From assembly GCA_030753015.1 (NCBI GenBank), contig JASMDC010000015.1:12769-76768 (forward strand): DNA of 64,000 nucleotides. Direction: 5' to 3'. The position numbers and the translations under genes are program-made. Below are positions 12,252 through 50,349 of the stretch, one piece after another. This stretch comes from Candidatus Undinarchaeales archaeon. GTDB lineage: Archaea > SpSt-1190 > JASMDC01. The first letter of the stretch is position 1; each line of letters begins with the position of its first letter. The notes beneath the pieces are model-generated. The model saw nothing but the letters and a program-made list of their open reading frames with translations, was not told the DNA's origin and ran no database searches.

Positions 12252-12365
12252 GGGGCCATAGCTCAGTCTGGGAGAGCGCCGGACTGAAGTTCCGACTTGG
12301 ATCTTCCGATACCAAGATGAGGATTTGAGATCCGGGTGTCCCGGGTTCGAACCCCGGTGGCCCCA
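12252..12365 (+). tRNA. tRNA-Phe(GAA) with a 40-nt intron (12290-12329) at canonical 37/38
   Basis: Acceptor GGGGCCA/TGGCCCC-A, D-arm GCTC/GAGC, anticodon stem CCGGA/TCCGG with CT-GAA-G^A, T-arm CCGGG-TTCGAAC-CCCGG; no encoded CCA. Confidence 0.93.
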
Positions 12366-12458
12366 CTCCGCGGGGGGCGTTTCGTCCTCCGCAACCCAGC
12401 TGCCCAGAATGACCTGCCCACGGACAACCATATAACACAAGAACGCCATTATACTCCT

Positions 12459-38544: not shown

Positions 38545-40083
38545 ATGCGGGGCGTAATCAGCTCGGGGCATCCGGTCACATCCGAGGCGGGTGCGAGCGT
38601 GCTGCGCAAGGGAGGGACCGCCGTCGACGCGGCACTTGCAGCGTCCGCTGTGAGCGGAGTTACCGAGCCCGGCCTCACCAGTCTTGGGGGGGGAGGTCTT
38701 GCCGTCATCCACGAGGGAGACAGCGGCCGCAACCGGGTCTTCGACTTCTTTGCAGACATGCCCGGCCTGGAAGGTGACGGTCCGGACCCCTCCAGTTTCA
38801 AGGAGCTGGTCGTTGACTATGAGGGTGCGCTGGAGACGTACCTGGTCGGCATGGGAACGGCAGCGCTCCCGGGCGTGCTCCCGGGTATCCTGTACATCCA
38901 CGAGGAGATGGGCACGCTCCCTCTGGCAGACGTCCTTGCCCCGGCGATACGGGTCGCGCGCGATGGGGTCGTGCTCAGCGCGTTCCAGGCCAGATGCAAC
39001 TACCTGTTCCGGGACCTTCTGGGCATGGGCCTGGAAAGCCGGAAGGTCTTTTTCAGGGACGGGGTGATGCTAAAGGAGGGCGAGCTCTTCACGAACCCCA
39101 ATGTGGCACGGCTGCTCTCGAAGTTCGGATCAGGCGACTGGAGGCAGACGCTGGAAAACGAGTTCTACTCGCCCATCGTCAAGCACATGGAGGAGATATC
39201 CGGCCCCATCACACCTGCCGACCTCGAGCACTACACACCCATCGAGCGCTGTCCTCTGGAGATATCGTGCATGGGCTTCGACCTGCTCACACCGCCCCCC
39301 CCGTCCACCGGTGGCCTCAGGATCGCCTTTCTGCTCAAGCTTTTAGAGCGCAACGAGCTTGCGGGCATGGACCGGACGGGCCCGGAGTACGTCGAGCTGC
39401 TCGCACAATGTCAGGCATCCACCGATGCCATGCGCAAGGGAGTTGTGGACGGCAACATCCACGACAAGAATCTTGCCGAAGAGGTGCTCTCGGAAGGCTG
39501 CCTGGACCGCTTTACCGACGATGCCATGGTCGTTGCACCGCCCCGGTCGGCGGGGAACACCACCCAGATATCGGTCACAGACGCAACGGGCACCGCCGTG
39601 TCGCTCACGACCACCACCGGCGAGAGCACGGGCTTCATGATCCCCGGCACCGGCGTGCTCTACAACAACATGCTGGGCGAGATCGACCTCAACCCCGACG
39701 GCTGCCGGGCGAACCCGGTCGGAAAAAGGCTCACGTCCTCCATGTCGCCTTCGGTGATGCTTGCTGACGGCGAGGTCATCGGCGTCATGGGGAGCGGTGG
39801 ATCGAGCAGGATCATAAGTGCCATCGTGCAGGTGTCGCTCAACCACGCGGTGTTCGGCCTCGACGCGGCAACGTCCGTGGAGTCGCCCCGAGCGCACTAC
39901 GAGGGCGGGGTGCTCCAGATGGAGGCAGGCTTTCCTGCAGCCACCGTCCAGAAGCTGAAGCGCACCTTCGAGGTGAACGAGTGGGACCGTATCGACCGGT
40001 ACTTCGGCGGCGTCCACATGACCACGGGGCGTACGGGTGCCGGCGACACGCGCAGGAGCGGGCACTTCATGGCCGTGGAGTAG
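38545..40083 (+). CDS. ggt: Gamma-glutamyltransferase family protein
   Basis: GGTAVDAA, LGGGG, PPPSTGG, N-TTQISV autoprocessing Thr, NNML, SSMSP, GSGG. Confidence 0.92.
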   Translation: MRGVISSGHPVTSEAGASVLRKGGTAVDAALAASAVSGVTEPGLTSLGGGGLAVIHEGDSGRNRVFDFFADMPGLEGDGPDPSSFKELVVDYEGALETYLVGMGTAALPGVLPGILYIHEEMGTLPLADVLAPAIRVARDGVVLSAFQARCNYLFRDLLGMGLESRKVFFRDGVMLKEGELFTNPNVARLLSKFGSGDWRQTLENEFYSPIVKHMEEISGPITPADLEHYTPIERCPLEISCMGFDLLTPPPPSTGGLRIAFLLKLLERNELAGMDRTGPEYVELLAQCQASTDAMRKGVVDGNIHDKNLAEEVLSEGCLDRFTDDAMVVAPPRSAGNTTQISVTDATGTAVSLTTTTGESTGFMIPGTGVLYNNMLGEIDLNPDGCRANPVGKRLTSSMSPSVMLADGEVIGVMGSGGSSRIISAIVQVSLNHAVFGLDAATSVESPRAHYEGGVLQMEAGFPAATVQKLKRTFEVNEWDRIDRYFGGVHMTTGRTGAGDTRRSGHFMAVE

Positions 40084-40248
40084 GGCAGGGGACGGCCTCA
40101 CTTTCGCATACCTGGGGCTTCAGGGGCGATGGACGAACGACGGCTGATCCGTCATCGCTCCAAAGATACACCATCTTGCGCCCGAGGGGCTCGTCATGGC
40201 GAGGTGACCGGGCCTATTTAATTGTTAGACACGTGAATTTCATGCTTC

Positions 40249-42054
40249 ATGGCACCACGGATCCGACAAGGTCAAGTTAATAAAAAAATACAATTTCAAA
40301 AGAGGATCCAAGGTGATGAGAATTCTAGTCCGGTGAAAGGCACCGATCATTATGTAGTCGCTCTGTTCTTTGTGTTATCACTGGTCTTTGTCGGGCCCAT
40401 TCTTAAGGGGCTGTACATGTATGGTATTCTCGACTGGGATCAACATTTCTTCTATCACGCGGTCCCAAGGGCCACCATCATCGAACATCACCAGTTCCCA
40501 TTATGGAATCCGTACCATTGTGGTGGCAACATCCTTCTTGCCAATCCCCAATCATCCTTCTTGTCCCCGACATTCATCTTCGTCCTCCTTTTCGATGTGA
40601 TACCGGGATTGAAAGTGAGGATCCTGATCCAGTACATGATCGGGTTGTACGGGATGTATATCCTGGCCCGATCGTTGGGTATGACCACTAATGGCAGCCT
40701 GTTATCCTCGAGCGTCTTTATGCTCAACGGAGCGTACGCATCCAACATCGTGGTCGGCCATACCACTTTTCTTCCTGTGGTGTATATCCCCTGGGCCTTT
40801 CATTACTTACTGAGAGGGATCGAGGACATCAGGTACATCCCTCTGTCCTCGATCGTCCTTTCCATCATGATCTTTGAGGGAGGTGTCTTTCCTTTCGTGT
40901 TCACATGCCTGTTCATGGGTGCGTTCTCGTTCTTCAAGGCGCTGCAACTCAAGAAGATAGCTCCTGCAGGAGCATTCGTCCTTGTCCTCTTTCTTACCTT
41001 CCTGCTAGCTTCCATCAAATTCCTTCCCCTTATCGAGTTCACTTCTATGAATCCATTATCAAGGGACGTCGGTAGGGGGTATACTGTTGAGATACTGGTC
41101 AACGCACTGACCAATCCCGACCTCAACACCGTCGATCTCAATTTGAAAGTATCGGACGACCAAGTAAATTACTGGATAGAATATTATGCGTATGTCGGCG
41201 CACTACCTTTGATACTCGGTATCTTTGGCGCATGCGTGATGCTGGGCTCAAGGTGGCCATTATTATTGACCACAGTTCTGTTCCTCATCCTCTCCTTTGG
41301 CTCGAACGAGACGCTGGATCTCTGGGGCATGATCCATCCCTTGCCCATCTTGAGCAGCTTCCAGGTACCCAGCAGATGTATGATGATGGTCGTCTTTTCT
41401 CTGGCTCTCTACTCCGGCTGGGCGCTTTCTTGGTTAGAGGGGTACGGGGCCCATATGTTGGTGACGTGGGGAGTGCTGGTCTTTGTCATCATGGATCTGG
41501 TGCTCGTTAACGGCGCTTTGTTCGAACTGGGGTTCATTCGATATCCTCCTGCGATCCTTGGTCGTCGTAGTGATACCCTCGTTCAATGGAAGGGATGGGG
41601 ACATTATGATTATTTCTTGATGAACAAAGGCCTGGTCAACTGCTATGAACGGACGCATCTCCCGATACGTGCACTTCCAGCTCAGGACGAGCAGTATAGA
41701 GGAGAGGTCTACTACAACGGGTCCATCGGGAGACCGGAAGTCATCAGTATAACCCCGAACGAGCTACGTTACCGCGTGTCCGTCGATCGACCCACCAGAC
41801 TGGTGGTCAATCAGAACTATGATCCCGGCTGGTATAGCACGGGACATGATGTGGTATCTCATGATGGATTGATATCGATCGACCTCGATCCGGATGATGA
41901 GATCGTGACCCTCTCATATCTACCGCGCTCCTTCCTCCTTGGCCAGCTGCTCTCGTTCCTTGGTCTCGTTCTTGCAGCCCTTGTGTATTATGATAGACTT
42001 CCCAATGGGGGGCTGGTGCTCGCCTCCAACGGCAGGCTCAACGACGGGATGTAG
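40249..42054 (+). CDS. Multi-pass membrane protein, YfhO-like/GT-C glycosyltransferase
   Basis: DWDQH, FPLWNPY.CGG...LANPQ, many TM segments, NQNYDPGW; GC visibly lower than the flanks. Confidence 0.78.
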   Translation: MAPRIRQGQVNKKIQFQKRIQGDENSSPVKGTDHYVVALFFVLSLVFVGPILKGLYMYGILDWDQHFFYHAVPRATIIEHHQFPLWNPYHCGGNILLANPQSSFLSPTFIFVLLFDVIPGLKVRILIQYMIGLYGMYILARSLGMTTNGSLLSSSVFMLNGAYASNIVVGHTTFLPVVYIPWAFHYLLRGIEDIRYIPLSSIVLSIMIFEGGVFPFVFTCLFMGAFSFFKALQLKKIAPAGAFVLVLFLTFLLASIKFLPLIEFTSMNPLSRDVGRGYTVEILVNALTNPDLNTVDLNLKVSDDQVNYWIEYYAYVGALPLILGIFGACVMLGSRWPLLLTTVLFLILSFGSNETLDLWGMIHPLPILSSFQVPSRCMMMVVFSLALYSGWALSWLEGYGAHMLVTWGVLVFVIMDLVLVNGALFELGFIRYPPAILGRRSDTLVQWKGWGHYDYFLMNKGLVNCYERTHLPIRALPAQDEQYRGEVYYNGSIGRPEVISITPNELRYRVSVDRPTRLVVNQNYDPGWYSTGHDVVSHDGLISIDLDPDDEIVTLSYLPRSFLLGQLLSFLGLVLAALVYYDRLPNGGLVLASNGRLNDGM

Positions 42055-42190
42055 GCGCTTGAGCGACAGCAACTTACCGCAACGATCCGGGGGCTGCTGA
42101 GCTCTCCTCTCGTTCCCGAGGATGCCCCGGCCCAAGGGAAGCTATAAAACGTGAGTGAGGAAGCCGCGAGCATAGATCGGTGGTGTAACC

Positions 42191-42796
42191 GTGGAGATAG
42201 AATACGAAGGCGTCATCAGAACGGACGACATGATCCTCTTGGGAGTGCGACAGAAGGGTACCGGCCCCTACGAGACACAGATGACCGTCCCCGGGATGAC
42301 ATACGACCAAAAGACCGATAAGGCCCTGGTCTCGATCGGTTCCAGGACCGACGACGGTGAGAGCGTTACGGGCATCATCCCCCAGCTCACCGGTCCCCTC
42401 GAGGGCTATGACCATGTCTCCATCGACCAGACCGTGGAGCTCGCATCGTACCATCCCGCCACCGGGCACATGGTCGGTCCCATGTACTGCTCGCTTGACG
42501 TGGAGACCGATCTGGCTGCGTCAGGGAATGGGGACGGATACGTCGCTCTCGCCCGGGAGCCTGCTCAGATGGATACCGTTCTCCAGGCGCTCACCATGGA
42601 GGGCATCATCCCCGACGATGTCGTCACCGCATATGGCACGCTCATGGACGATCCCACCGAGGGCAACTACCTGAAGCTGCTCCACCAGATCGAGGTCAAC
42701 AAGGATGACATCGCCCTAGCACGTCTCCACATAGAGTGGTACATAGATGATGGGGACATCACGGACCTTGGCTTCGCACCCGGAGACCTCTCCTAG
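42191..42796 (+). CDS. Hypothetical acidic protein
   Basis: Coding-like codon usage; TATA-like CTATAAAA upstream. Confidence 0.65.
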   Translation: MEIEYEGVIRTDDMILLGVRQKGTGPYETQMTVPGMTYDQKTDKALVSIGSRTDDGESVTGIIPQLTGPLEGYDHVSIDQTVELASYHPATGHMVGPMYCSLDVETDLAASGNGDGYVALAREPAQMDTVLQALTMEGIIPDDVVTAYGTLMDDPTEGNYLKLLHQIEVNKDDIALARLHIEWYIDDGDITDLGFAPGDLS

Positions 42797-42922
42797 GTCC
42801 GCTTTGAGCATAGGATCTGTTGCCCGTGCATCGGAAGTCTGACAAGATCATCGGCGTCAACGTCCTGGCCCCGGGGCGTCCGACCTGGTACACGAGGGTG
42901 CCATTATGGATTCGTGATACGA

Positions 42923-42937
42923 GTGCGCCGGTCGGGA
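42923..42937 (-). repeat. Repeat family A copy 1 (tRNA-Gly-like 3' end)
   Basis: GTGCGCCGGTCGGGA on the plus strand. Confidence 0.85.
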
Positions 42938-43073
42938 ACAAAGCCCACATTCAGGGGCAAATGAGAACGGGAACGGTCGCGGGGGGGCGCACTCCGCTGG
43001 ACCTTGACCAACGGGCCCCGGGCATTCGATCGATGGAATATGCATATATACTATAACCACCATTATACTAACT

Positions 43074-44306
43074 ATGATTATTGTTAGGGGGGAGGCAGAG
43101 GAGATCAAGAAGATACACAAGTGGTTGCTCGTGTACGGAAGGCGGAAGACGGGCAAGACCTTCCTCCTCAGGAACCTCACGGACTACGACGAGTACTACT
43201 TCGTGAAAAGGGACAGGGGGATACTCACCGACTCAGGTGCCCTCTCGTACGAGACCTTCCTGGAGCTGTTCAAGCGCCAGCTCAACGACGGAGGGACGGT
43301 GATCGTGGACGAGTTCCACCGCCTGGGCGAAGGGTTCCAGGATATCCTCCACTTCCTTCCGAAGAAGGGGAAAGTGATACTCGTATCGTCCACGCTGCAC
43401 CTATCGAGGAAGCTGGTGGGATCGCACTCCCCCCTGCTCGGTGTGGTCGCCGAGTTCCAAATGCCGCTCCTGCGACTCTTCGACGTGCTGAGCTCCCTGC
43501 ACGGTGATGGTCTCTCCAAGAAGGAGCTCGTCGAGACTGCCGTGCTCCTGCGCGAGCCCATAACCATCGACCATTACACACCTGGCGAGGGAGCTGTATC
43601 CACGTTCACGAGGGTGATGACGAGCACGAAGTACCTCGTACCGGCGCTCATCGGCGAGATATTCACAGAGGAGGACCGCTCCCTCTCAGCGGTCTACGAG
43701 GGCGTCCTGCGTGCTATAGCCGGCGGGAAGTGCGTATCGAGCGAGATATCGAGCTTCCTCTTCTCGCACGGACTGATCAAGAAGGACGATCCCAGCCTCC
43801 TCCAGCAGTACCTCAACAATCTCGTGTCGTTCGGCCTCCTGAAGCGGTTGAAGGTGTACAACAAGCGGCGTTACGTCTACATGCATACCTCGCCGCTGGT
43901 CTATCTCTACTTCTACGCTGACGAGAAGTACAACCTCTCCGAGATCGAGGCTGGACCCGAGGTGATCTCCCGCATCATCGCCGAGCTCTATCCGCGCATC
44001 ATCGAGGGAGCGGTGCGCGAGCTCTTGGCCGAGCACTTCGGGCTGGTGGAGTCCGTCGTCCGGGAGAAGGATTTTGACATCGACGCCTACCTGCTGCGGT
44101 TCAAGACGCCCGAAGTGGCCGTGGAGGTCAAGTGGAAGGACAAGGTCTCATCCAAGGACGTGCGCAAGGCCGAGGATACCCTGTCACGCGTCGAAGCGAA
44201 GCGCAGGATCCTGTTCGTCCCGGACAAGAAAAAGGTCGAGTGCGGGAGCGACCTCGAGATCATGGACGTAGGCGACGTGCTGCAGGGACGTGCTTCTGCG
44301 GAGTAG
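43074..44306 (+). CDS. Archaeal ATPase with wHTH and C-terminal PD-(D/E)xK-like domain (DUF234-type)
   Basis: YGRRKTGKT, IVDEFH, C-terminal DID..AVEVKW. Confidence 0.85.
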   Translation: MIIVRGEAEEIKKIHKWLLVYGRRKTGKTFLLRNLTDYDEYYFVKRDRGILTDSGALSYETFLELFKRQLNDGGTVIVDEFHRLGEGFQDILHFLPKKGKVILVSSTLHLSRKLVGSHSPLLGVVAEFQMPLLRLFDVLSSLHGDGLSKKELVETAVLLREPITIDHYTPGEGAVSTFTRVMTSTKYLVPALIGEIFTEEDRSLSAVYEGVLRAIAGGKCVSSEISSFLFSHGLIKKDDPSLLQQYLNNLVSFGLLKRLKVYNKRRYVYMHTSPLVYLYFYADEKYNLSEIEAGPEVISRIIAELYPRIIEGAVRELLAEHFGLVESVVREKDFDIDAYLLRFKTPEVAVEVKWKDKVSSKDVRKAEDTLSRVEAKRRILFVPDKKKVECGSDLEIMDVGDVLQGRASAE

Positions 44307-44319
44307 ATTCATAACAAAA

Positions 44320-44335
44320 GTGCGCCGGTAGGGAC
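44320..44335 (-). repeat. Repeat family A copy 2
   Basis: GTGCGCCGGTAGGGAC (one mismatch). Confidence 0.8.
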
Positions 44336-44483
44336 CCGAGCGCGCATCAGGGGCACTCATCCTGTGCATACGCACGTAGAACAAGCGTATGGACTATGAT
44401 CGGAACAGATATCGCCCGAGCGGACCTGTCGGAGATATACTTTTATTGACTTGGTTCGATCCACCGTACAGAGCGTGATTACC

Positions 44484-45899
44484 ATGGTATCCCCGTCCAC
44501 CAAGATCGGCGACCTCATCGAGGAGCATCCCTTCCTTGTCGACTTCCTGCCCACCCTCTCTCCCCGGTACGAGGCCTTGCGCAGCCCCACCATGCGAGCC
44601 ACTATGGGAAAGGTGGCCACCGTAGAGATGGCCGCCAAGATGGGAGGACTGGAGGTGGACGAGCTTGTCACCGCCATCGAGAGCGAGATCGCCCGACACG
44701 TCGAGGGCGACGCGTCCGCCCCGACCGAAGAGGAGCTTGCGCGACGCAAGGAGGTCCTCAAGGGCATCATCCGCGACATCCACGCGGGCGCCGACATCGA
44801 GGAGCTTAAGGTCCGGTTCGCCTCCCTCATCAAGGGCGTGGGCCCTGCTGAGATCTCGGCCGTGGAGCAGGCGCTCATCGCCGATGGCATGCCCGCAGAG
44901 GAGATCAAGCGCCTGTGCGACGTCCACGTGGAGGTGTTCAAGAGCTCGCTCGAGATGAAGAAGCCACCATCCACCCCGCCAGGCCACCCGGTCCACACCT
45001 ACATGCAGGAGAACCAGGCAAGTGCCGACATCATGCGCAAGATCGTAGATCGATTGGAGGGCCTGGAGGACGCGCTACCCGAGGTCAAGGGCCTTCTCGA
45101 CGAGCTGGCCAAGATCGACATCCACTACACCCGAAAGGAGAACCAGCTCTTCCCCGCCCTCGAGCGCCACGGTATCACGGGGCCCTCGCAGGTCATGTGG
45201 GCCATCCACGACGATATCAGGGCGCTGGTGAAACAGGTGCGGGAGGCACTGGATGGCGAGGACGTCGCAAGCGCCGCCACCCTCCTCCGGGACCTTGTTG
45301 GGACCATCGGCGACATGGTCTACAAGGAGGAGCACATCCTCTACCCGGCTGCGCTGGAAGCCCTGACGGAGGAGGACTGGGTGCGCGTGCGGCAGGGCGA
45401 GGAGGAGATCGGGTACGCATGGGTGACACCTGCGGCCCCCTGGCCACCCGAGGGGACCGAGGTAGCGGTCTCTTCTGAAGGGACCTCGGCCCTCTCCATG
45501 GACACCGGGGCGCTCACCCACGAGCAGCTCAACCTCCTGCTCAAGCACCTTCCCTTCGACGTGACCTTCGTGAGCGAGAACGACGAGGTGCTGTACTACT
45601 CGGACACTCCAGAGCGGATCTTCCCCCGGTCGGCAGGGGTCATCGGGCGAAAGGTGCAGAACTGCCACCCGCCCAAGAGCGTCCACGCAGTCACTCGCAT
45701 CCTGGACGAGTTCAGGGCCGGGACGCGGGACGTCGCCGAGTTCTGGATCCATCTCCACGGAAAGTTCCTCTACATCCGGTACTTCGCCGTGCGCGACGGT
45801 AAGGGCACCTATCGCGGATGCCTCGAGGTCATGCAGGAGATATCCCGCATCTCCAAACTCGAAGGGGACAAGCGGCTGCTGGACGACAGCACTGCCTAG
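44484..45899 (+). CDS. DUF438/hemerythrin-like/PAS domain protein
   Basis: EIKRLCDVH, PPGHPVHTY..EN, HY.RKEN.LFP, VMW..HD, VQNCHPPKS. Confidence 0.88.
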   Translation: MVSPSTKIGDLIEEHPFLVDFLPTLSPRYEALRSPTMRATMGKVATVEMAAKMGGLEVDELVTAIESEIARHVEGDASAPTEEELARRKEVLKGIIRDIHAGADIEELKVRFASLIKGVGPAEISAVEQALIADGMPAEEIKRLCDVHVEVFKSSLEMKKPPSTPPGHPVHTYMQENQASADIMRKIVDRLEGLEDALPEVKGLLDELAKIDIHYTRKENQLFPALERHGITGPSQVMWAIHDDIRALVKQVREALDGEDVASAATLLRDLVGTIGDMVYKEEHILYPAALEALTEEDWVRVRQGEEEIGYAWVTPAAPWPPEGTEVAVSSEGTSALSMDTGALTHEQLNLLLKHLPFDVTFVSENDEVLYYSDTPERIFPRSAGVIGRKVQNCHPPKSVHAVTRILDEFRAGTRDVAEFWIHLHGKFLYIRYFAVRDGKGTYRGCLEVMQEISRISKLEGDKRLLDDSTA

Positions 45900-45933
45900 G
45901 ACGGAAGGTACCAGAGACGTTTCGCAAGAGACA

Positions 45934-46018
45934 GGTGCGCCGGTCGGGACCCGTTCTCGTGTACGAACAGGCACAGAACGCCAGATGACCTTTTGGGACA
46001 TCCTTAAAAGATCGGACC
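45934..46018 (-). repeat. Repeat family A copy 3 plus about 70 bp shared with copy 5
   Basis: GGTGCGCCGGTCGGGACCCGTTCT..GAACGCCAGATGACC.TTTGGGA..TTAAAAGA.CGGACC. Confidence 0.88.
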
Positions 46019-46102
46019 GCAGAGGCCTTCAAGTATGTCGAGAAAGGGCACAAGAAGGGAAGTGTCGTTATGACCGTGGTGGATGATGACAAGGGATCAT
46101 AG
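46016..46102 (+). pseudogene. C-terminal remnant of an MDR-family NAD(P)-dependent dehydrogenase
   Basis: TAEAFKYVEKGHKKGSVVMTV..*; not in the supplied ORF track. Confidence 0.75.
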
Positions 46103-46158
46103 GTACGTAATTTAGTTTCATGGCACTTAATAGCCAACAAGCGACATAGCTCACATGG

Positions 46159-46797
46159 GTGAACAAAACGGATGAACTATCTGCAAGATGCAAGAACGAG
46201 ATACACACCTTTTTCGGCCTGGCCGTCGTTAATCTTGTGATCGCTGCATTGATCCTGGCCTTCGGGATATCTACAGGTGTCACGCGGCTCATGGCCTTTT
46301 CCAGGTCAGGAGAGATCGAACTGATGTCCCTATTATTGATCGGTGCGGGCCTTGCTGCAGCAATTGCTGGACTGTATTGGCTGGTAAAGACCGCCGAGAT
46401 CCTCGAAGGTGTCGAAAAGATCGACTCGGACTGGGAAAAGATCACACAACATGACGATCAGGAACAGGTCACGGGTGTTCTTGTTCAAATGATAGCTCAT
46501 TATCGAAAGAACCAGCCGGTCATCGACAGAATGACCGTTCTTGGACGGATAGTCGGGATCCTTTTCCTTGTTTCCGGATCTCTGAGCCTGCTGGATTCGG
46601 GAAGGACACTGCTTGCATCCGGCATGGTCAATGAAGGCATGTTCCAGCTTGCAGGTGCCATAGCGGTATTTAGCGTTGGGATCGGAAGTCTTCTCATCGC
46701 AAGATACTTCGAACGGTATTCCGGGATCTGGGTCGTCCGACTAAAGGAAGAAGATAACATCCAGGAAGCGCTCACCGAACTGTTGGAGGCCAGCTAA
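46159..46797 (+). CDS. Hypothetical 4-TM membrane protein
   Basis: Four hydrophobic helices; lower GC; adjacent to a wHTH gene. Confidence 0.7.
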   Translation: MNKTDELSARCKNEIHTFFGLAVVNLVIAALILAFGISTGVTRLMAFSRSGEIELMSLLLIGAGLAAAIAGLYWLVKTAEILEGVEKIDSDWEKITQHDDQEQVTGVLVQMIAHYRKNQPVIDRMTVLGRIVGILFLVSGSLSLLDSGRTLLASGMVNEGMFQLAGAIAVFSVGIGSLLIARYFERYSGIWVVRLKEEDNIQEALTELLEAS

Positions 46798-46798
46798 C

Positions 46799-47074
46799 GT
46801 GAAAGGGCGACGTACCAATTACGAGATCTATTGGGAGATCCTGGTCTTCTGCCGTGAACCCAGATCGTTCACCAGTATTATCAATCGTTGCGATCTGAAC
46901 TCAAAGATCGGGCAGCAGCATATCCAGTTCCTCACGGACAAGAAGTTCCTTTCGATCGAGACCCTCGAGAAGAAGAGATCGTACACCACTACAGAACAAG
47001 CTCACGAATATATCAGCCTTTTTTCACAACTATATCGAAAGATGTATGACAGTGCCCCGGAATTCAAACTGTGA
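46799..47074 (+). CDS. Archaeal winged-helix regulator (HTH_45-like)
   Basis: RRT.YEIY.EIL..T.II..C.LN..L..Y.TT. Confidence 0.8.
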   Translation: MKGRRTNYEIYWEILVFCREPRSFTSIINRCDLNSKIGQQHIQFLTDKKFLSIETLEKKRSYTTTEQAHEYISLFSQLYRKMYDSAPEFKL

Positions 47075-47115
47075 ATGCTCGCTAAGGACCCGTTAGCATA
47101 CGATCAACATGAGAA

Positions 47116-47131
47116 TGGTGCGCCGGTCGGG
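47116..47131 (-). repeat. Repeat family A copy 4
   Basis: TGGTGCGCCGGTCGGG; reverse complement ends in ..GGCGCA-CCA. Confidence 0.85.
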
Positions 47132-47456
47132 GACACAACCTTTATAGGTTCGTGAGGTCTCGCCATCCATTGTCCTAACGGACCTGTTGTGGGGACATTG
47201 CCGGCCTTCGCTGGATTGAACACCAGTGTCTCCACAACTGCTTTCCCCCATCCTTGCATATAATCCCACCAGCGAAGGCTGCGGATCGATAGAAGGGATG
47301 CCGATCCTACAAGATTCCCTGCTGTTGAGCAAGATAACGAGGGGCGTCTCCAGTATCCCATATCCCCCTGTTCATCGATAGGACCTGCCTACGGGATGTG
47401 GATCGAACCCTTTGCCACCCACCGTATTTTCCTTGAGCGAACACCGAGAGAAGGGA

Positions 47457-47547
47457 TGGTGCGCCGGTCGGGACCTGGACCCGTTCTTTTTTCTGACAGG
47501 CCCTGAACGCCAGATGACCGTTTGGGATATTGTTAAAAGAACGGACC
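47457..47547 (-). repeat. Repeat family A copy 5 plus about 70 bp shared with copy 3
   Basis: Reverse complement reads CGGG-TCCAGGT-CCCGA-CCGGCGC-A-CCA, a degenerate T-arm plus acceptor 3' strand. Confidence 0.88.
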
Positions 47548-47568
47548 ATCGACTCTGGACGGATGATC

Positions 47569-48300
47569 ATGAAAGCCATCCTGCACACAAGATACGGACC
47601 TGCCGACGAGCTTGAGCTCACAGAGGTCCCCAGACCGGTCCCCGGGGACAACGAGGTCTCGATCAAGGTGCATGCGACGGCAGTGACGACGGGCGACTGC
47701 AACGTCCGGAACCTCACGTTCGCGCCCAGAGATTTCAAGATCCCTGTGCGGTTGTTCCTGGGGATAAGAACACCTCGGATCAAGATACTTGGGAACGAGG
47801 TGGCCGGAGTGATCGAGGCCGTCGGCAAGGACGTCACGCGGTTCGCGGTCGGTGACAAGGTCTTCGGGACCCCCGGCGCTGCCATGGGCGCCCATGCCGA
47901 GTACCTGTGCATGCCCGAGGACGGAGTGCTGGCGATAAGACCTGACCCGATGAGCTGGGAGGAGGCCGAGGTAGTCATCGCCGAGCACGACGGTGCGCCC
48001 GTCGGGTTCGCCCTCTTCTTCCATAACTACTCGACGTTCCTGGGACGGCACGGCATCTACATCGAGGACCTGTACGTCCGGCCCGAGCATCGAGGGAAGG
48101 GGTGCGGGAAACAGCTGCTCGCCCATCTTGCCGACCTTGCCGTCGAGCGGGGGTGCGGGCGATTGGAGTGGTGGGTCCTCGACGTCAACCGGCCTGCCAT
48201 CGACTTCTACGGGTCTCTGGGAGCGCAGGCGATGGACGAGTGGACCGTGTACAGGCTGACCGGAAAGGAGCTGGGGCGGCTGGCCGCAGGCGGGCGGTGA
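47569..48300 (+). pseudogene. In-frame chimera: MDR dehydrogenase N-terminal domain fused to the C-terminal part of an SSAT-like GNAT
   Basis: MKAI..YG..EV..KVHA..GDKVFG..GAHAEY..MSWEEA joined near 47965 to EVVIAE..VGFALFFHNYSTFLG..EDLYVRPEHRGKG..LEW.VLD.N.PAIDFY; no Rossmann domain. Confidence 0.8.
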
Positions 48301-48307
48301 GCAGTCG

Positions 48308-48781
48308 CTACGAGAAGCTGCCGTACACCGTGATCGGCGTCGTCACGTTCTCGAACCCGCGGTCCTCCAGCGCTGCCGCCAGGTCGTGGAACGCCACCTC
48401 GTCCATCTTCGAGCTCCGGAACTCGACCGACACGTTCACCTTGTCAGAACTGAAGGTGCCGCCGCGCTCGTACCGGATGGTGCCATGAGCGACCGTGTGG
48501 ATGTAATGGTCGTCCGGGGGATCGGCCGGCTCGAACTTGAAGTTCATGTAGATGGGATCGCGCTCGTCGTGGCCGACCTCCAGGTCGAGGCCCAGGTCCT
48601 TGTTGGCCAGCTCGAGAGCGAACTCGGCGTCACGGTAGCCCTTGTTGATCTCCTGCTCGTCCATGCCCTTGCCGAACAGGCCAAGGAACTTGCCTGCGTC
48701 CATGGTGAAGTCGGCGTACCCGTCGCCGTGGATCATGTTGACGGCCTCGCCGCCGTACTCGGTGAGCGCGCAGTATCCCAT
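48308..48781 (-). CDS. Hypothetical protein
   Basis: Host-like codon bias; TATA-like CTTAAATA upstream. Confidence 0.65.
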   Translation of the reverse strand: MGYCALTEYGGEAVNMIHGDGYADFTMDAGKFLGLFGKGMDEQEINKGYRDAEFALELANKDLGLDLEVGHDERDPIYMNFKFEPADPPDDHYIHTVAHGTIRYERGGTFSSDKVNVSVEFRSSKMDEVAFHDLAAALEDRGFENVTTPITVYGSFS

Positions 48782-48850
48782 AAGATTACCGTCCTTACTG
48801 ACCGCGCGCTGGATCCCGGTATTTAAGGTTTGCCCGGGGGTGACGGACGC

Positions 48851-49585
48851 TCACGCCAGCTCGTAGATGTGCGTGACGGGGTCCGAGTAGACAAGCCAGA
48901 ACCCATCGATACGCGCCCCGACGAAGGCATCCCCCAGGACCGTCCCCTTGACGGGCCCCGGTTCACGGCCTGCTGCGATGAAGATGGCGTCGGCCTTGGC
49001 AGCGTCCTCGGCATGGACGTACAGGTACCCTGCGCCGTGGACCTTCATCACCGTTCGTGTATCGGCGGGATCGTAGGCGAGCAGTGCATCTGCCACGTCC
49101 CGGACGAGCGCGTGGGGCACGCAGTCGGGGCAGATGATGTCGTCTGCGGGCATCCCCAGGTACTTGGATACCGTCACCGGCAACAGCTCCCTCGAGGGTG
49201 CGTCGATCACCGGCTCGCGCTCGCCGTAGGCGCGGATGGCATGACCGTAGTCCCACCATGAAAGGACGTGCGCGTCCGGCGGCGTGTTCCTGTGCAGCCA
49301 GTCGAGGCCGGGCCGCATGGAGCGCGGGAGCGTCTGGTCGGGGATGATGGTGCGGTTGCCCCTGGTGTACCGCATAAGGGTGATCTCTCGCGCGGCCGTG
49401 CCGTGGCCGACCTCCTCGGTGACAAGCTCCAGGTCGTACCTGCCGCCGATACGCTCGACGTTCTCATCGATATTCCCGGGGCCGTCTGGATTCCCGTACC
49501 CCGTTCCGTCCAAGTAGTTGATGGAGATGATCGCACAAATGATCAGGATCCCGAGGCCCGTCAGCACGTACCGGGTGTCCGTCAT
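48851..49585 (-). CDS. Stand-alone AglB/STT3 C-terminal-domain protein
   Basis: Single N-terminal TM; LDWL..NTP....LSWWDYGH; DxxK-like EDAAK. Confidence 0.75.
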   Translation of the reverse strand: MTDTRYVLTGLGILIICAIISINYLDGTGYGNPDGPGNIDENVERIGGRYDLELVTEEVGHGTAAREITLMRYTRGNRTIIPDQTLPRSMRPGLDWLHRNTPPDAHVLSWWDYGHAIRAYGEREPVIDAPSRELLPVTVSKYLGMPADDIICPDCVPHALVRDVADALLAYDPADTRTVMKVHGAGYLYVHAEDAAKADAIFIAAGREPGPVKGTVLGDAFVGARIDGFWLVYSDPVTHIYELA

Positions 49586-49631
49586 CCTGCAATTGATTCA
49601 GGCGTGGATGCCATAAATACGTGCTGAGCGC

Positions 49632-49658
49632 AAAAAAGGCCTTAAAATCAGGCCTTTT
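49632..49658 (-). terminator. Hairpin plus U-run after the cdc48-MBL operon
   Basis: Minus strand AAAAGGCCT-GATTTTA-AGGCCTTTTTT. Confidence 0.55.
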
Positions 49659-50349
49659 GGGGCTTACTTTCAACGTTCACGACGCTCCCGACGCCCACCT
49701 GGCGGAAGGTGCGGGGGAACAGCTCGGGGAACCGGTCCGGCTCCCGAGTGCAGTGGCACGGGGCCACCAGAGAGAGGTTTTCCAGCTGCCCGGGGTCCTT
49801 TGCGTCATGCATCCCGCCCAGGATGCCCCTGACCCGGCCGTGTAGGCTCGCTGCATCCAGCACCGGGGCAAAGCCGGGATGACAGCACCCGGTGACTGCC
49901 AGAACGCCGGTCCCGGCGTCGACGACCAGCGCCTGCTCTTTCAGTTCACCGCCCAGAGCCGGTGTCGTGCGCACGCCCGGCACCACCCTGCTGCCGTCCT
50001 CGGTCCCCGTCACCGAAACGTCGGCGCGGTTGGACAGCTCGATGCGCAGGTGTCGGGGGATGCCCTCGGGAACGTACAGCGGCACATCCCCCCTGGCCTC
50101 GAGGAAGCGTGCGAGACCCCCCAGATGGTCCCAGTGCGGGTGCGAGAGCACCACGGCATCGACCGACCGGATATCCACTCTCAGCTCTGCCATGTTGTGC
50201 AGGAGAAGTCCGCCGTCGAAGCCAGCGTCGAACAGTACCTTTCCGCCGGGCACCTCTGCGAGGCAGGAAAAGCCCCAGCCGCAGCGCAGCGAGGTCGAAG
50301 CACCTGGCGCGAGCCGGTTGTCGTACAGCACCGTCAGGCGCGCGGTCAT
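49648..50349 (-). CDS. MBL-fold metallo-hydrolase
   Basis: VLYDN, GWGFS, SHPHWDHLGG, TGCCHPG, GGMH, PCHCT. Confidence 0.88.
   Translation of the reverse strand: MTARLTVLYDNRLAPGASTSLRCGWGFSCLAEVPGGKVLFDAGFDGGLLLHNMAELRVDIRSVDAVVLSHPHWDHLGGLARFLEARGDVPLYVPEGIPRHLRIELSNRADVSVTGTEDGSRVVPGVRTTPALGGELKEQALVVDAGTGVLAVTGCCHPGFAPVLDAASLHGRVRGILGGMHDAKDPGQLENLSLVAPCHCTREPDRFPELFPRTFRQVGVGSVVNVESKPQKA

Follow-up and report, generated by a model that had tools for sequence, protein, structure and literature searches.

Tandem accretion of islands bounded by attachment (att) sites, some of them without integration modules, is a known kind of genome organization. The locus described here belongs to this kind. 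It is an array of five copies of a short repeat in a 64,000-nucleotide stretch of a Candidatus Undinarchaeales genome (GenBank assembly GCA_030753015.1, contig JASMDC010000015.1), and its particular features are a site without a tRNA gene, very small single-gene units and the host lineage. The whole stretch, called the window, corresponds to C24:12769-76768 of the source genome (G000), an assembly of 3.85 Mb in 117 contigs with 60% GC. The repeated core is the 14-mer GTGCGCCGGTCGGG, and its five array copies are named w1-w5 in window order. This core is the 3' end of tRNA-Gly, and its copies are probably att scars left by the serial integration of tRNA-Gly-specific elements into a secondary site that resembles tRNA-Gly but holds no tRNA, with later duplication and deletion.

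The islands found at ssrA in Dehalococcoides have been described as tandem, co-oriented units with a direct repeat of about 20 bp of the 3' end of the small-RNA gene, and beside each repeat there is a conserved extra motif that is not alignable to the RNA gene (PMC3146451). In that account, 15 islands are without the integration module, and their discussion presents them as cis-mobilizable elements or fixed remnants, 16 keep the module, the cargo is ordinary and metabolic, the array begins at an intact ssrA and the integrase is a serine recombinase (PMC3146451). The window array resembles these islands in its tandem, repeat-bounded units, in the extra motif beside the repeat, in its units without a module and in its ordinary cargo. 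It differs from them in the lack of an intact tRNA at the array, in the archaeal host, in the much smaller size of the units (0.3-1.6 kb) and in that no serine recombinase was found.

For the ICESt1 family, Pavlovic et al. are said to have described in 2004 att-flanked units without integrase or transfer genes that were arrayed by site-specific recombination at a shared att site. Such cis-mobilizable units can stay behind when the autonomous partner excises. The units of the window are likewise flanked by att-like repeats and devoid of recombination or transfer genes; unlike the cis-mobilizable elements, however, they have no autonomous partner using the tRNA-Gly core in this assembly.

The 'gene capture' in archaeal chromosomes was reportedly discussed by She et al. 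in 2001, and capture of the SSV type leaves int(N) and int(C) fragments at the borders. In contrast, no PF00589 or PF16795 fragment was found at the borders in the window, and the array is not placed at a tRNA gene. Tandem integration at one locus and the loss of the integrase after integration have been reported for archaeal elements, in a review (PMC8371274) and in a thaumarchaeal survey (PMC6563490). The window array shares with archaeal tRNA-integrated elements the duplication of a tRNA 3' end as att site, the probable tandem integration and the possible loss of the integrase.

An integron consists of the IntI integrase, the attI site and attC cassettes; IntI, attI and Pc head the array, attC is an imperfect palindrome that folds as a hairpin at each cassette end, and strains differ in their cassettes with junctions at these sites. 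The window array is similar in having short, co-oriented and mostly single-gene units that are delimited by a repeat resembling a recombination site, with no recombinase inside. However, the array has neither IntI nor attI beside it, a tRNA 3' end with an arm takes the place of the imperfect palindrome, and the repeat forms no conserved hairpin. Also unlike integron cassettes, the window units have their own TATA-like upstream sequences and show no reshuffling in population contigs.

The repeated core and its copies in the genome

Two genes of the source genome, tRNA-Gly(TCC) at C11 c[93606-93683] and tRNA-Gly(GCC) at C22 c[42906-42982], both end in ...TTCAAATCCCGACCGGCGCACCA, and the core GTGCGCCGGTCGGG is the reverse complement of the 3' half of the T-stem, the 3' strand of the acceptor stem and the discriminator A, up to and including the first C of CCA. 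The copies are identical to the ends of both genes over 14-20 nt, and the third glycine tRNA gene (CCC) is intact with a different end. The exact core occurs only 7 times in 3.85 Mb (16 times at up to one mismatch): four times in the window, once in each of the two tRNA-Gly genes and once at 0.85 kb from tRNA-Gly(TCC). It is the 3' end alone that has been duplicated, with 8 genomic copies of the tRNA-Gly 3' 14-mer versus a single copy of the 5' 14-mer of each gene. Among 61 genomes searched, the exact motif was present in two, the source genome and that of a sister species (G001), which is the sole close relative in this set, and in none of the 59 genomes outside the genus. The original prediction, made from the sequence alone, had held that the repeat is derived from a tRNA and that tRNA 3' ends have been duplicated; both statements stand, since tRNA-Gly(TCC) and tRNA-Gly(GCC) end in the motif, the 3' 14-mer is multiplied and the 5' 14-mers are not, and the motif is not scattered over the genome.

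In the window the core is exact at 42923, 45935, 47118 and 47459 and has one mismatch at 44320, all five copies being in the same orientation on the plus strand. These are the positions given in the original prediction. At up to two mismatches the window contains 7 matches, versus a mean of 2.03 in shuffled sequences, and none of 100 shuffles reached 7. The five copies are intergenic and co-oriented, as had been predicted too: w1 starts 126 nt past the stop at 42796, w2 13 nt past the stop at 44306, w3 35 nt past the stop at 45899 and w4 43 nt past the stop at 47074, and w5 lies about 100 nt upstream of the ATG of a fused gene, ADH_N::GNAT. Several copies are near TATA-like sequences. The full CCA (tGG on the plus strand) is present only in w4 and w5, in agreement with the two copies originally noted. 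Identity extends beyond CCA into the trailers, over 20 nt between w4 and the partial copy near tRNA-Gly(TCC), and over 20 nt between w5 and the tRNA-Gly(GCC) end plus its trailer. The 20 nt of w4 match C11:92749-92768, and 19 nt match C22:40528-40546.

The window contains no tRNA gene according to ARAGORN with default settings. An Rfam search of 40000-50000 at E<=10 gave three spurious matches, with no tRNA among them and nothing for the conserved block next to w4. The originally proposed degenerate T-arm of w5 holds in part: 7 of the 10 bases after the core agree with the tRNA, but there is no significant similarity to a tRNA beyond the core plus 10 nt. The possibility that w5 is a decayed whole tRNA-Gly gene was rejected, as its score beyond the core was matched by 520 of 2000 shuffles (744 of 2000 for w3). 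Folding of ten copies revealed no common structure, w1 being the only one that pairs its own ends, and neither dyad symmetry nor a hairpin followed by a T-run was found at the repeat copies. A w1-type unit acting as a tRNA-like or hairpin site was rejected as well, for only w1 pairs its ends.

Three further partial copies are found outside the window. The exact copy C11a (C11:92755) lies 0.85 kb downstream of tRNA-Gly(TCC), with a HicB/HicA-like pair in between; copy C22a (C22:40535) has one mismatch and lies 2.4 kb downstream of tRNA-Gly(GCC), with an insertion sequence (IS) transposase in between; and the copy at C61:17094 also has one mismatch, with synteny to G001 beginning 32 nt away. A w1-type arm of about 45-70 nt accompanies the core at w1, C11a, C22a and C61 and is degenerate at w2. 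It stands on the side where an attR site carries element DNA, and its versions at w1 and C11a agree with 95% identity over 44 nt. Within C11:92755-93683, the 0.84-kb unit holds only the genes for the HicB-like antitoxin and the HicA-like toxin. Visual inspection gave no support to the idea that the arm codes for a peptide or for part of an integrase, and there is no match to PF00589 or PF16795 there.

The pattern of core plus arm was also searched in other collections. In the genome contigs database it gave 6 matches, all in bacterial metagenome-assembled genomes and judged to be due to chance, and in viral contigs it gave none. The 18-mer that includes CCA and T had 4 matches in viral contigs, located in GC-rich contigs without tRNA genes and apparently in coding DNA. 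In metagenome contigs, no relative of the GGT protein was found among 65 pattern matches, and a conserved 27-mer of the block next to w4 had no match.

The array locus in the sister species and in populations

The features of the locus are given below with their window coordinates; for the core copies the strand is that of the tRNA sense. Pfam searches agree with the cargo genes listed between the repeats in the original prediction.

38545-40083: conserved GGT gene, left flank.
40084-42922, plus strand: segment between the GGT gene and w1, with two open reading frames (ORFs) that belong to no family; not present in the syntenic G001 locus by synteny BLAST.
42923-42936, minus strand: w1, exact core, no CCA.
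42937-43005, minus strand: w1-type arm beside the w1 core, common to C11:92755, C22:40535 and C61:17094 and degenerate at w2.
43074-44306, plus strand: cargo of unit A, a 410-amino-acid AAA_14 ATPase with a weak Mrr_cat-like C-terminus (Pfam).
44320-44333, minus strand: w2, core with one mismatch, followed by a degenerate w1-type arm from 44334 to about 44365 in which the T-stem 'ACCCGAG' is kept.
44451-45899, plus strand: cargo of unit B, a DUF1858-DUF438-hemerythrin-PAS_10 protein (Pfam).
45935-45948, minus strand: w3, exact core, a w5-type copy with a 6-nt deletion that corresponds to the old ADH-associated core.
45949-46079, plus strand: duplicate of the ADH upstream region plus the ADH tail, 87% identical to 47495-47546.
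46159-46797, plus strand: cargo of unit C, a 212-amino-acid membrane protein (Pfam).
46799-47074, plus strand: cargo of unit C, a 91-amino-acid HTH_45/Sso10a-like winged helix-turn-helix protein (Pfam).
47112-47131, minus strand: w4, core with CCA and trailer; a homologue with one mismatch is present at the G001 locus.
47132-47252, plus strand: conserved non-coding block, 89% identical to G001, with no Rfam match.
47253-48832: 1580-bp indel segment with the rest of the 'empty' unit that follows w4, w5, ADH_N::GNAT and a 157-amino-acid ORF; no repeat at its ends.
47454-47483, minus strand: w5, in which 47454-47473 is the tRNA-Gly(GCC) end plus its present trailer (20 nt identical), followed by 10 T-arm-like nt.
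47530-48300, plus strand: an in-frame deletion fusion that joins ADH_N (residues 39-136) to a C-terminal portion of GNAT (residues 143-231).
47993-48006, plus strand: core-like motif with one mismatch in the GNAT coding part, about 35-45 nt from the ADH/GNAT fusion point; the G001 ortholog differs there.

The flanks of the array are kept in G001, with GGT on the left and GNAT, the 157-amino-acid ORF and a 244-amino-acid ORF on the right, and the content between them differs. In G001, GGT is directly followed by an intact ADH of 308 amino acids with a degenerate core-like sequence in front. Next come an acyltransferase and a 100-amino-acid ORF, a w4 homologue with one mismatch and the same conserved block of 130 nt, and then, 530 bp further, a core copy with two mismatches, followed by several genes, Hcp-like and NHL among them, and by an intact GNAT of 169 amino acids, which lies about 8.5 kb from the intact ADH. 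Since both the ADH-associated core and w4 have homologues in G001, these two cores are older than the species split. The homology block with G001 at w4 begins at the left edge of the motif.

With respect to G001, 5.85 kb are inserted in the source genome between GGT and the ADH-associated core, and the right end of this insertion is w3. The insert reads w1 plus arm, ATPase, w2 plus arm, sensor and w3, and this order of cores and arms at w1-w2-w3 is the one that would be expected from two serial integrations into an older core. The left ends of the insertions specific to the source genome are not in the repeat.

The two ADH-associated copies, w3 and w5, belong to a duplicated segment that takes in about 70 nt of the ADH promoter (87% over 52 nt), with the 6-nt deletion of w3 located in the T-loop-like part. 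The tail at 46015-46079, about the last 65 nt of ADH, has 82% identity with the corresponding end of the intact ADH of G001, and the ADH that follows w3 is a gene with an internal deletion. The GC content is mosaic across the island. It falls to 46-53% at 40200-42000, versus 60-67% in the flanks, and is 48-52% in unit C (46159-47074), in place of which G001 has the acyltransferase and the 100-amino-acid ORF. The ORFs at 40249-42054 and 42191-42796 had no match in Pfam, NCBIfam or PHROGs; the former encodes 601 amino acids and lies within the low-GC stretch. The motif at 47993, which the original prediction does not list, is judged to be a coincidence because it is not conserved in G001.

The block at 47132-47252 is better conserved than its neighbours and contains a TATA-like 'ctttata'. 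It can form a hairpin with a 15-bp stem (-33.8 kcal/mol, z -3.86; none of 200 shuffles was equally stable), and three one-sided changes preserve the pairing. Possible roles of this block are those of a small RNA, of a terminator or of a section of an att arm.

Of the 23 runs listed for the stretch, 20 (from 12 studies) contain it at least in part, and the 23 runs are labelled as seawater, marine, hydrothermal vent or plain metagenome. The population comparison has been carried out with the assembled contigs of four metagenome runs from four studies (X4, X7, X11 and X12); contigs drop rare forms, so that rare excision products are invisible in them. A single contig of X4 covers 42659-47253 with no differences, and a single contig of X7 covers 39500-47252 with one difference and then resumes at 48833; w1-w4 are unchanged in both. 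Short matching pieces with 0-1 differences were found in X11 and X12, where no single contig spans the array and uncovered parts are uninformative. The only structural variant at the locus is the joint 47252->48833, the 1580-bp indel, in X4 (depth 7.4), X7 (37.9) and X11 (4.6). The deletion form is dominant in X7, in which the skipped part has a depth of 1.3-2.9, and it lacks w5, ADH_N::GNAT, the rest of the 'empty' unit and the 157-amino-acid ORF, the latter being conserved in G001. No core-to-core joint was found at the window array in the contigs of the four runs. The joints '42966->47456' and '42966->42923', considered as signs of excision, were rejected as cross-mapping from the tRNA-Gly(TCC) locus of C11. 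At that locus, one X4 contig joins the C11 flank to two copies of core plus arm and to a continuation that is absent from the source genome, which hints at gain or loss at tRNA-Gly(TCC).

No contig of the source genome ends in the core. In G001, four contig ends break exactly in the tRNA-Gly core (C10:136378, C32:17489, C27:1 and C28:28203), two of them at tRNA genes and two at downstream flanks. These breaks could reflect population heterogeneity at att sites or just an assembly repeat.

Parallel tRNA-Leu arrays and integrases of the genus

A second array of the same design is present at tRNA-Leu(TAG) of the source genome (C31:17290-28441), where the 3' 14-mer of the gene recurs twice behind it, both times with a shared arm of 75 nt in front (57/75 identical). 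The first unit (2.7 kb) contains only a Na+/H+ exchanger gene and the second (8.3 kb) a regulator and inositol-catabolism-like genes, and neither has an integrase. In G001 (C6), the distal flank follows immediately on the 3' end of tRNA-Leu(TAG), the two overlapping by 19 nt at the core, and this is a precise empty site. The converse is seen at tRNA-Leu(GAG), where G001 carries an element with a tyrosine integrase ORF of 333 amino acids at 0.6 kb from the tRNA and the counterpart site of the source genome is empty; the far end of this element has an arm of the same family, identical at 59/75 and 55/76 positions to the arms of the source genome. Insertion at the tRNA-Leu cores has been precise, and an autonomous element that uses the same core exists for tRNA-Leu in G001. 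Integrases lie 0.5-1.1 kb downstream of tRNA-Leu, tRNA-Glu and tRNA-Cys in G001, and the source genome also has a tRNA-Glu integrase, split over two contigs. From the tRNA-adjacent integrases and the tRNA-Leu empty sites it follows that the genus hosts classical tRNA-targeting tyrosine-integrase elements, and core plus arm is their attR signature.

A solitary tRNA-Leu 3' 14-mer was detected in the 42-nt spacer between tRNA-Leu(TAA) and tRNA-Thr(GGT) at C44:12919-12960 and may be a minimal scar. Additional copies of a tRNA-Ser 14-mer (C20, C29 and C39) look like chance matches in coding DNA.

A six-frame search of the source genome with PF00589 gave 5 matches, of which C31 has two and C76, C53 and C88 have a single one. 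There were no matches in this genome to PF16795 (SSV-type) or to the serine recombinase families PF00239 and PF07508. Neither an integrase nor an attP site cognate to the tRNA-Gly core was found in G000, in G001 or in the scans of viral and metagenome contigs. At C76:975-1439 a full-length PF00589 recombinase frame of 369 amino acids has one in-frame TAG; it is a pseudogene or else a sign that TAG is read through or codes for pyrrolysine.

Origin of the array and alternative explanations

The data are best accounted for by serial integration, and we infer the agent at the window locus (a tyrosine integrase), the succession of events and the origin from a secondary site. Each repeat, a copy of the last 14-20 nt of tRNA-Gly(TCC/GCC), would have been left when a small mobile element inserted site-specifically in the manner of tyrosine integrases. 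In front of the ADH gene, an old fragment resembling tRNA-Gly, the ancestor of w3 and w5, and a second old copy, w4, would predate the species split and would have served as secondary attB sites. Two elements of one family with w1-type arms may then have integrated successively into the old core in the G000 lineage, giving the order flank, w1 plus arm, ATPase, w2 plus arm, DUF438 sensor, w3 and ADH, and the same family would have inserted at both true tRNA-Gly genes (the 0.84-kb HicAB unit and the 2.36-kb IS-filled unit) and at the C61 site. Later segmental duplication, producing w3 and w5, and illegitimate deletions would have generated the ADH with its internal deletion, the fused gene ADH_N::GNAT and the indel of 1580 bp. 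Today the units hold no integrase, and the responsible recombinase is absent from the assembly.

Several observations weigh against this scheme. No intact tRNA-Gly is found at the array in the window or at the syntenic locus of G001, and beyond its core plus 10 nt w5 shows no detectable trace of a decayed tRNA, 520 of 2000 shuffles scoring equally. No obvious motif is common to the unit sides that face away from the arm, the 2.8-kb segment that separates GGT from w1 does not begin with a core on the left, and the w1-type arm does not occur in G001 (only matches of 14-15 nt), so that units A and B have no empty-site proof. PF00589 gave no match on C24, C11, C22 or C61, no integrase contig carries the core at up to one mismatch, and the four integrase contigs have no convincing core copy at up to three mismatches. 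The original prediction had already remarked that the 64 kb hold neither an integrase nor an intact tRNA-Gly, and the PF00589 and ARAGORN searches agree; the tyrosine recombinases that it pointed to do exist next to tRNA genes in the genus, with none linked to the tRNA-Gly core. The completeness of the source genome is 98.9% by marker genes, but mobile contigs often remain unbinned and the absence of the integrase from this assembly is therefore weak evidence. In addition, the four bounded w1-type units (1.38, 1.6, 0.84 and 2.36 kb) all lack an integrase, which under simple decay would need four separate losses. Finally, the breakpoints of the population indel are off the repeats, 121 nt to the right of w4 and 207 nt to the left of w5, and its ends share 1 nt; this variant fits an island decaying by illegitimate deletion and counts against an exchange of cassettes at the repeats.

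The small units may once have been autonomous and have lost their integrases, or may always have been non-autonomous and have been deposited or mobilized by a partner, like cis-mobilizable elements. The lack of an integrase in 4/4 w1-type units and in 2/2 tRNA-Leu units of the source genome favours the latter. Against current activity at this locus stand the lack of a motif shared by the units on their other side, the unchanged w1-w4 in the two spanning runs and the indel outside the repeats. In its broadest form, the idea of a non-autonomous origin would mean that a widespread marine archaeal genus runs a tRNA-att 'cassette' economy based on minimal integrase-less units of one gene plus about 90 nt of arm and core, which seems unlikely to us. 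It is just as doubtful that trans-acting tyrosine integrases deposit and pick up such units at tRNA-Gly genes, tRNA-Leu genes and tRNA-less pseudo-sites, or that the system is a functional archaeal analogue of the integron or of cis-mobilizable-element capture built on tRNA 3' ends.

The related proposal that the locus is still an active cassette platform, integron-like or cis-mobilizable, where a trans-acting integrase continues to capture, excise and reshuffle minimal units, is also considered improbable, whether this integrase is sought on an unbinned plasmid or virus or among the resident recombinases. It would explain why all w1-type units and both tRNA-Leu units of the source genome keep arm and core without an integrase; the 95% identity of the w1 and C11a arms over 44 nt suggests a recent spread, the X4 contig at tRNA-Gly(TCC) hints at gain or loss, and the four broken contig ends of G001 fall exactly at the core. 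However, w1-w4 are intact on one contig both in X4 (0 differences) and in X7 (1 difference), the sole indel has its breakpoints off the repeats, the genome, viral and metagenome scans brought up neither a cognate integrase nor an attP, no hairpin site is conserved, and w3 and w5 arose by duplication. The integron-like accretion of the original prediction is thus retained in its serial order of integration and its tRNA-derived att site, but ongoing traffic, an attC-like hairpin and a linked integrase were not found, and the term 'integron-like' overstates the novelty. Two of its other points lack support: the cassette captures, taken as separate events, do not apply to w3 and w5, which are related by segmental duplication of the ADH promoter region, and the comparison of strains, in which breakpoints were expected within the repeats, gave at this locus only a variant that breaks outside them.

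That duplication would be the whole explanation if there had been no site-specific recombination at the locus and a single tRNA-Gly fragment had arrived once and spread by local segmental duplication or gene conversion. The clear duplication of w3 and w5, including about 70 nt of ADH promoter, and an island marked by deletion fusions and by an indel whose ends show 1 nt of microhomology are in line with such a history, but we regard it as very unlikely: the neighbours of w1, w2 and w4 differ from those of w3 and w5, the copies retain trailers of different types, and arms of the w1 type are found again beside true tRNA-Gly genes on three other contigs, which local duplication cannot account for. 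Still more improbable is that the motif is a functional cis element, such as an operator, a terminator or an antisense-to-tRNA RNA motif, whose likeness to tRNA is due to chance or use. All copies are intergenic and co-oriented with the genes and several are near TATA-like sequences, as a regulatory role would have it, but the exact motif occurs just 7 times in the genome, with 3 copies lying in or beside tRNA-Gly genes, the identity reaches CCA and the trailers, neither dyad symmetry nor a hairpin with a T-run is present, and the downstream genes are functionally unrelated. Split and tri-split tRNA-Gly genes occur in archaea, and the copies, being tRNA 3' ends in one orientation, might recall the 3' halves of trans-joined genes. 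This idea is effectively refuted: the similarity stops after 14-30 nt, far below a 3' half, which would run from the anticodon loop to the 3' end and have a leader for trans-splicing, intact tRNA-Gly genes are present for TCC, GCC and CCC, and the tRNA covariance model gives no match even at E<=10.

Under the serial-integration reading, the array shows how single accessory genes are stitched into an archaeal chromosome, among them those for an ATPase-nuclease, an oxygen/redox-type sensor, a toxin-antitoxin pair and an antiporter, together with an inositol-catabolism operon. The core with the w1-type arm for tRNA-Gly, and the core with the 75-nt arm for tRNA-Leu, provide markers for acquired islets and for the missing integrase element. 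If the units were mobilized in trans, the biology of cis-mobilizable cassettes would extend to Archaea; if not, the locus would be a clear and ordinary case of integration scars followed by deletional decay.

In a part of the window unrelated to the array, ARAGORN with the intron option has revealed an intron-bearing tRNA-Phe(GAA) at C24:25020-25134 (window positions of about 12252-12366), which had been missed by the default run.

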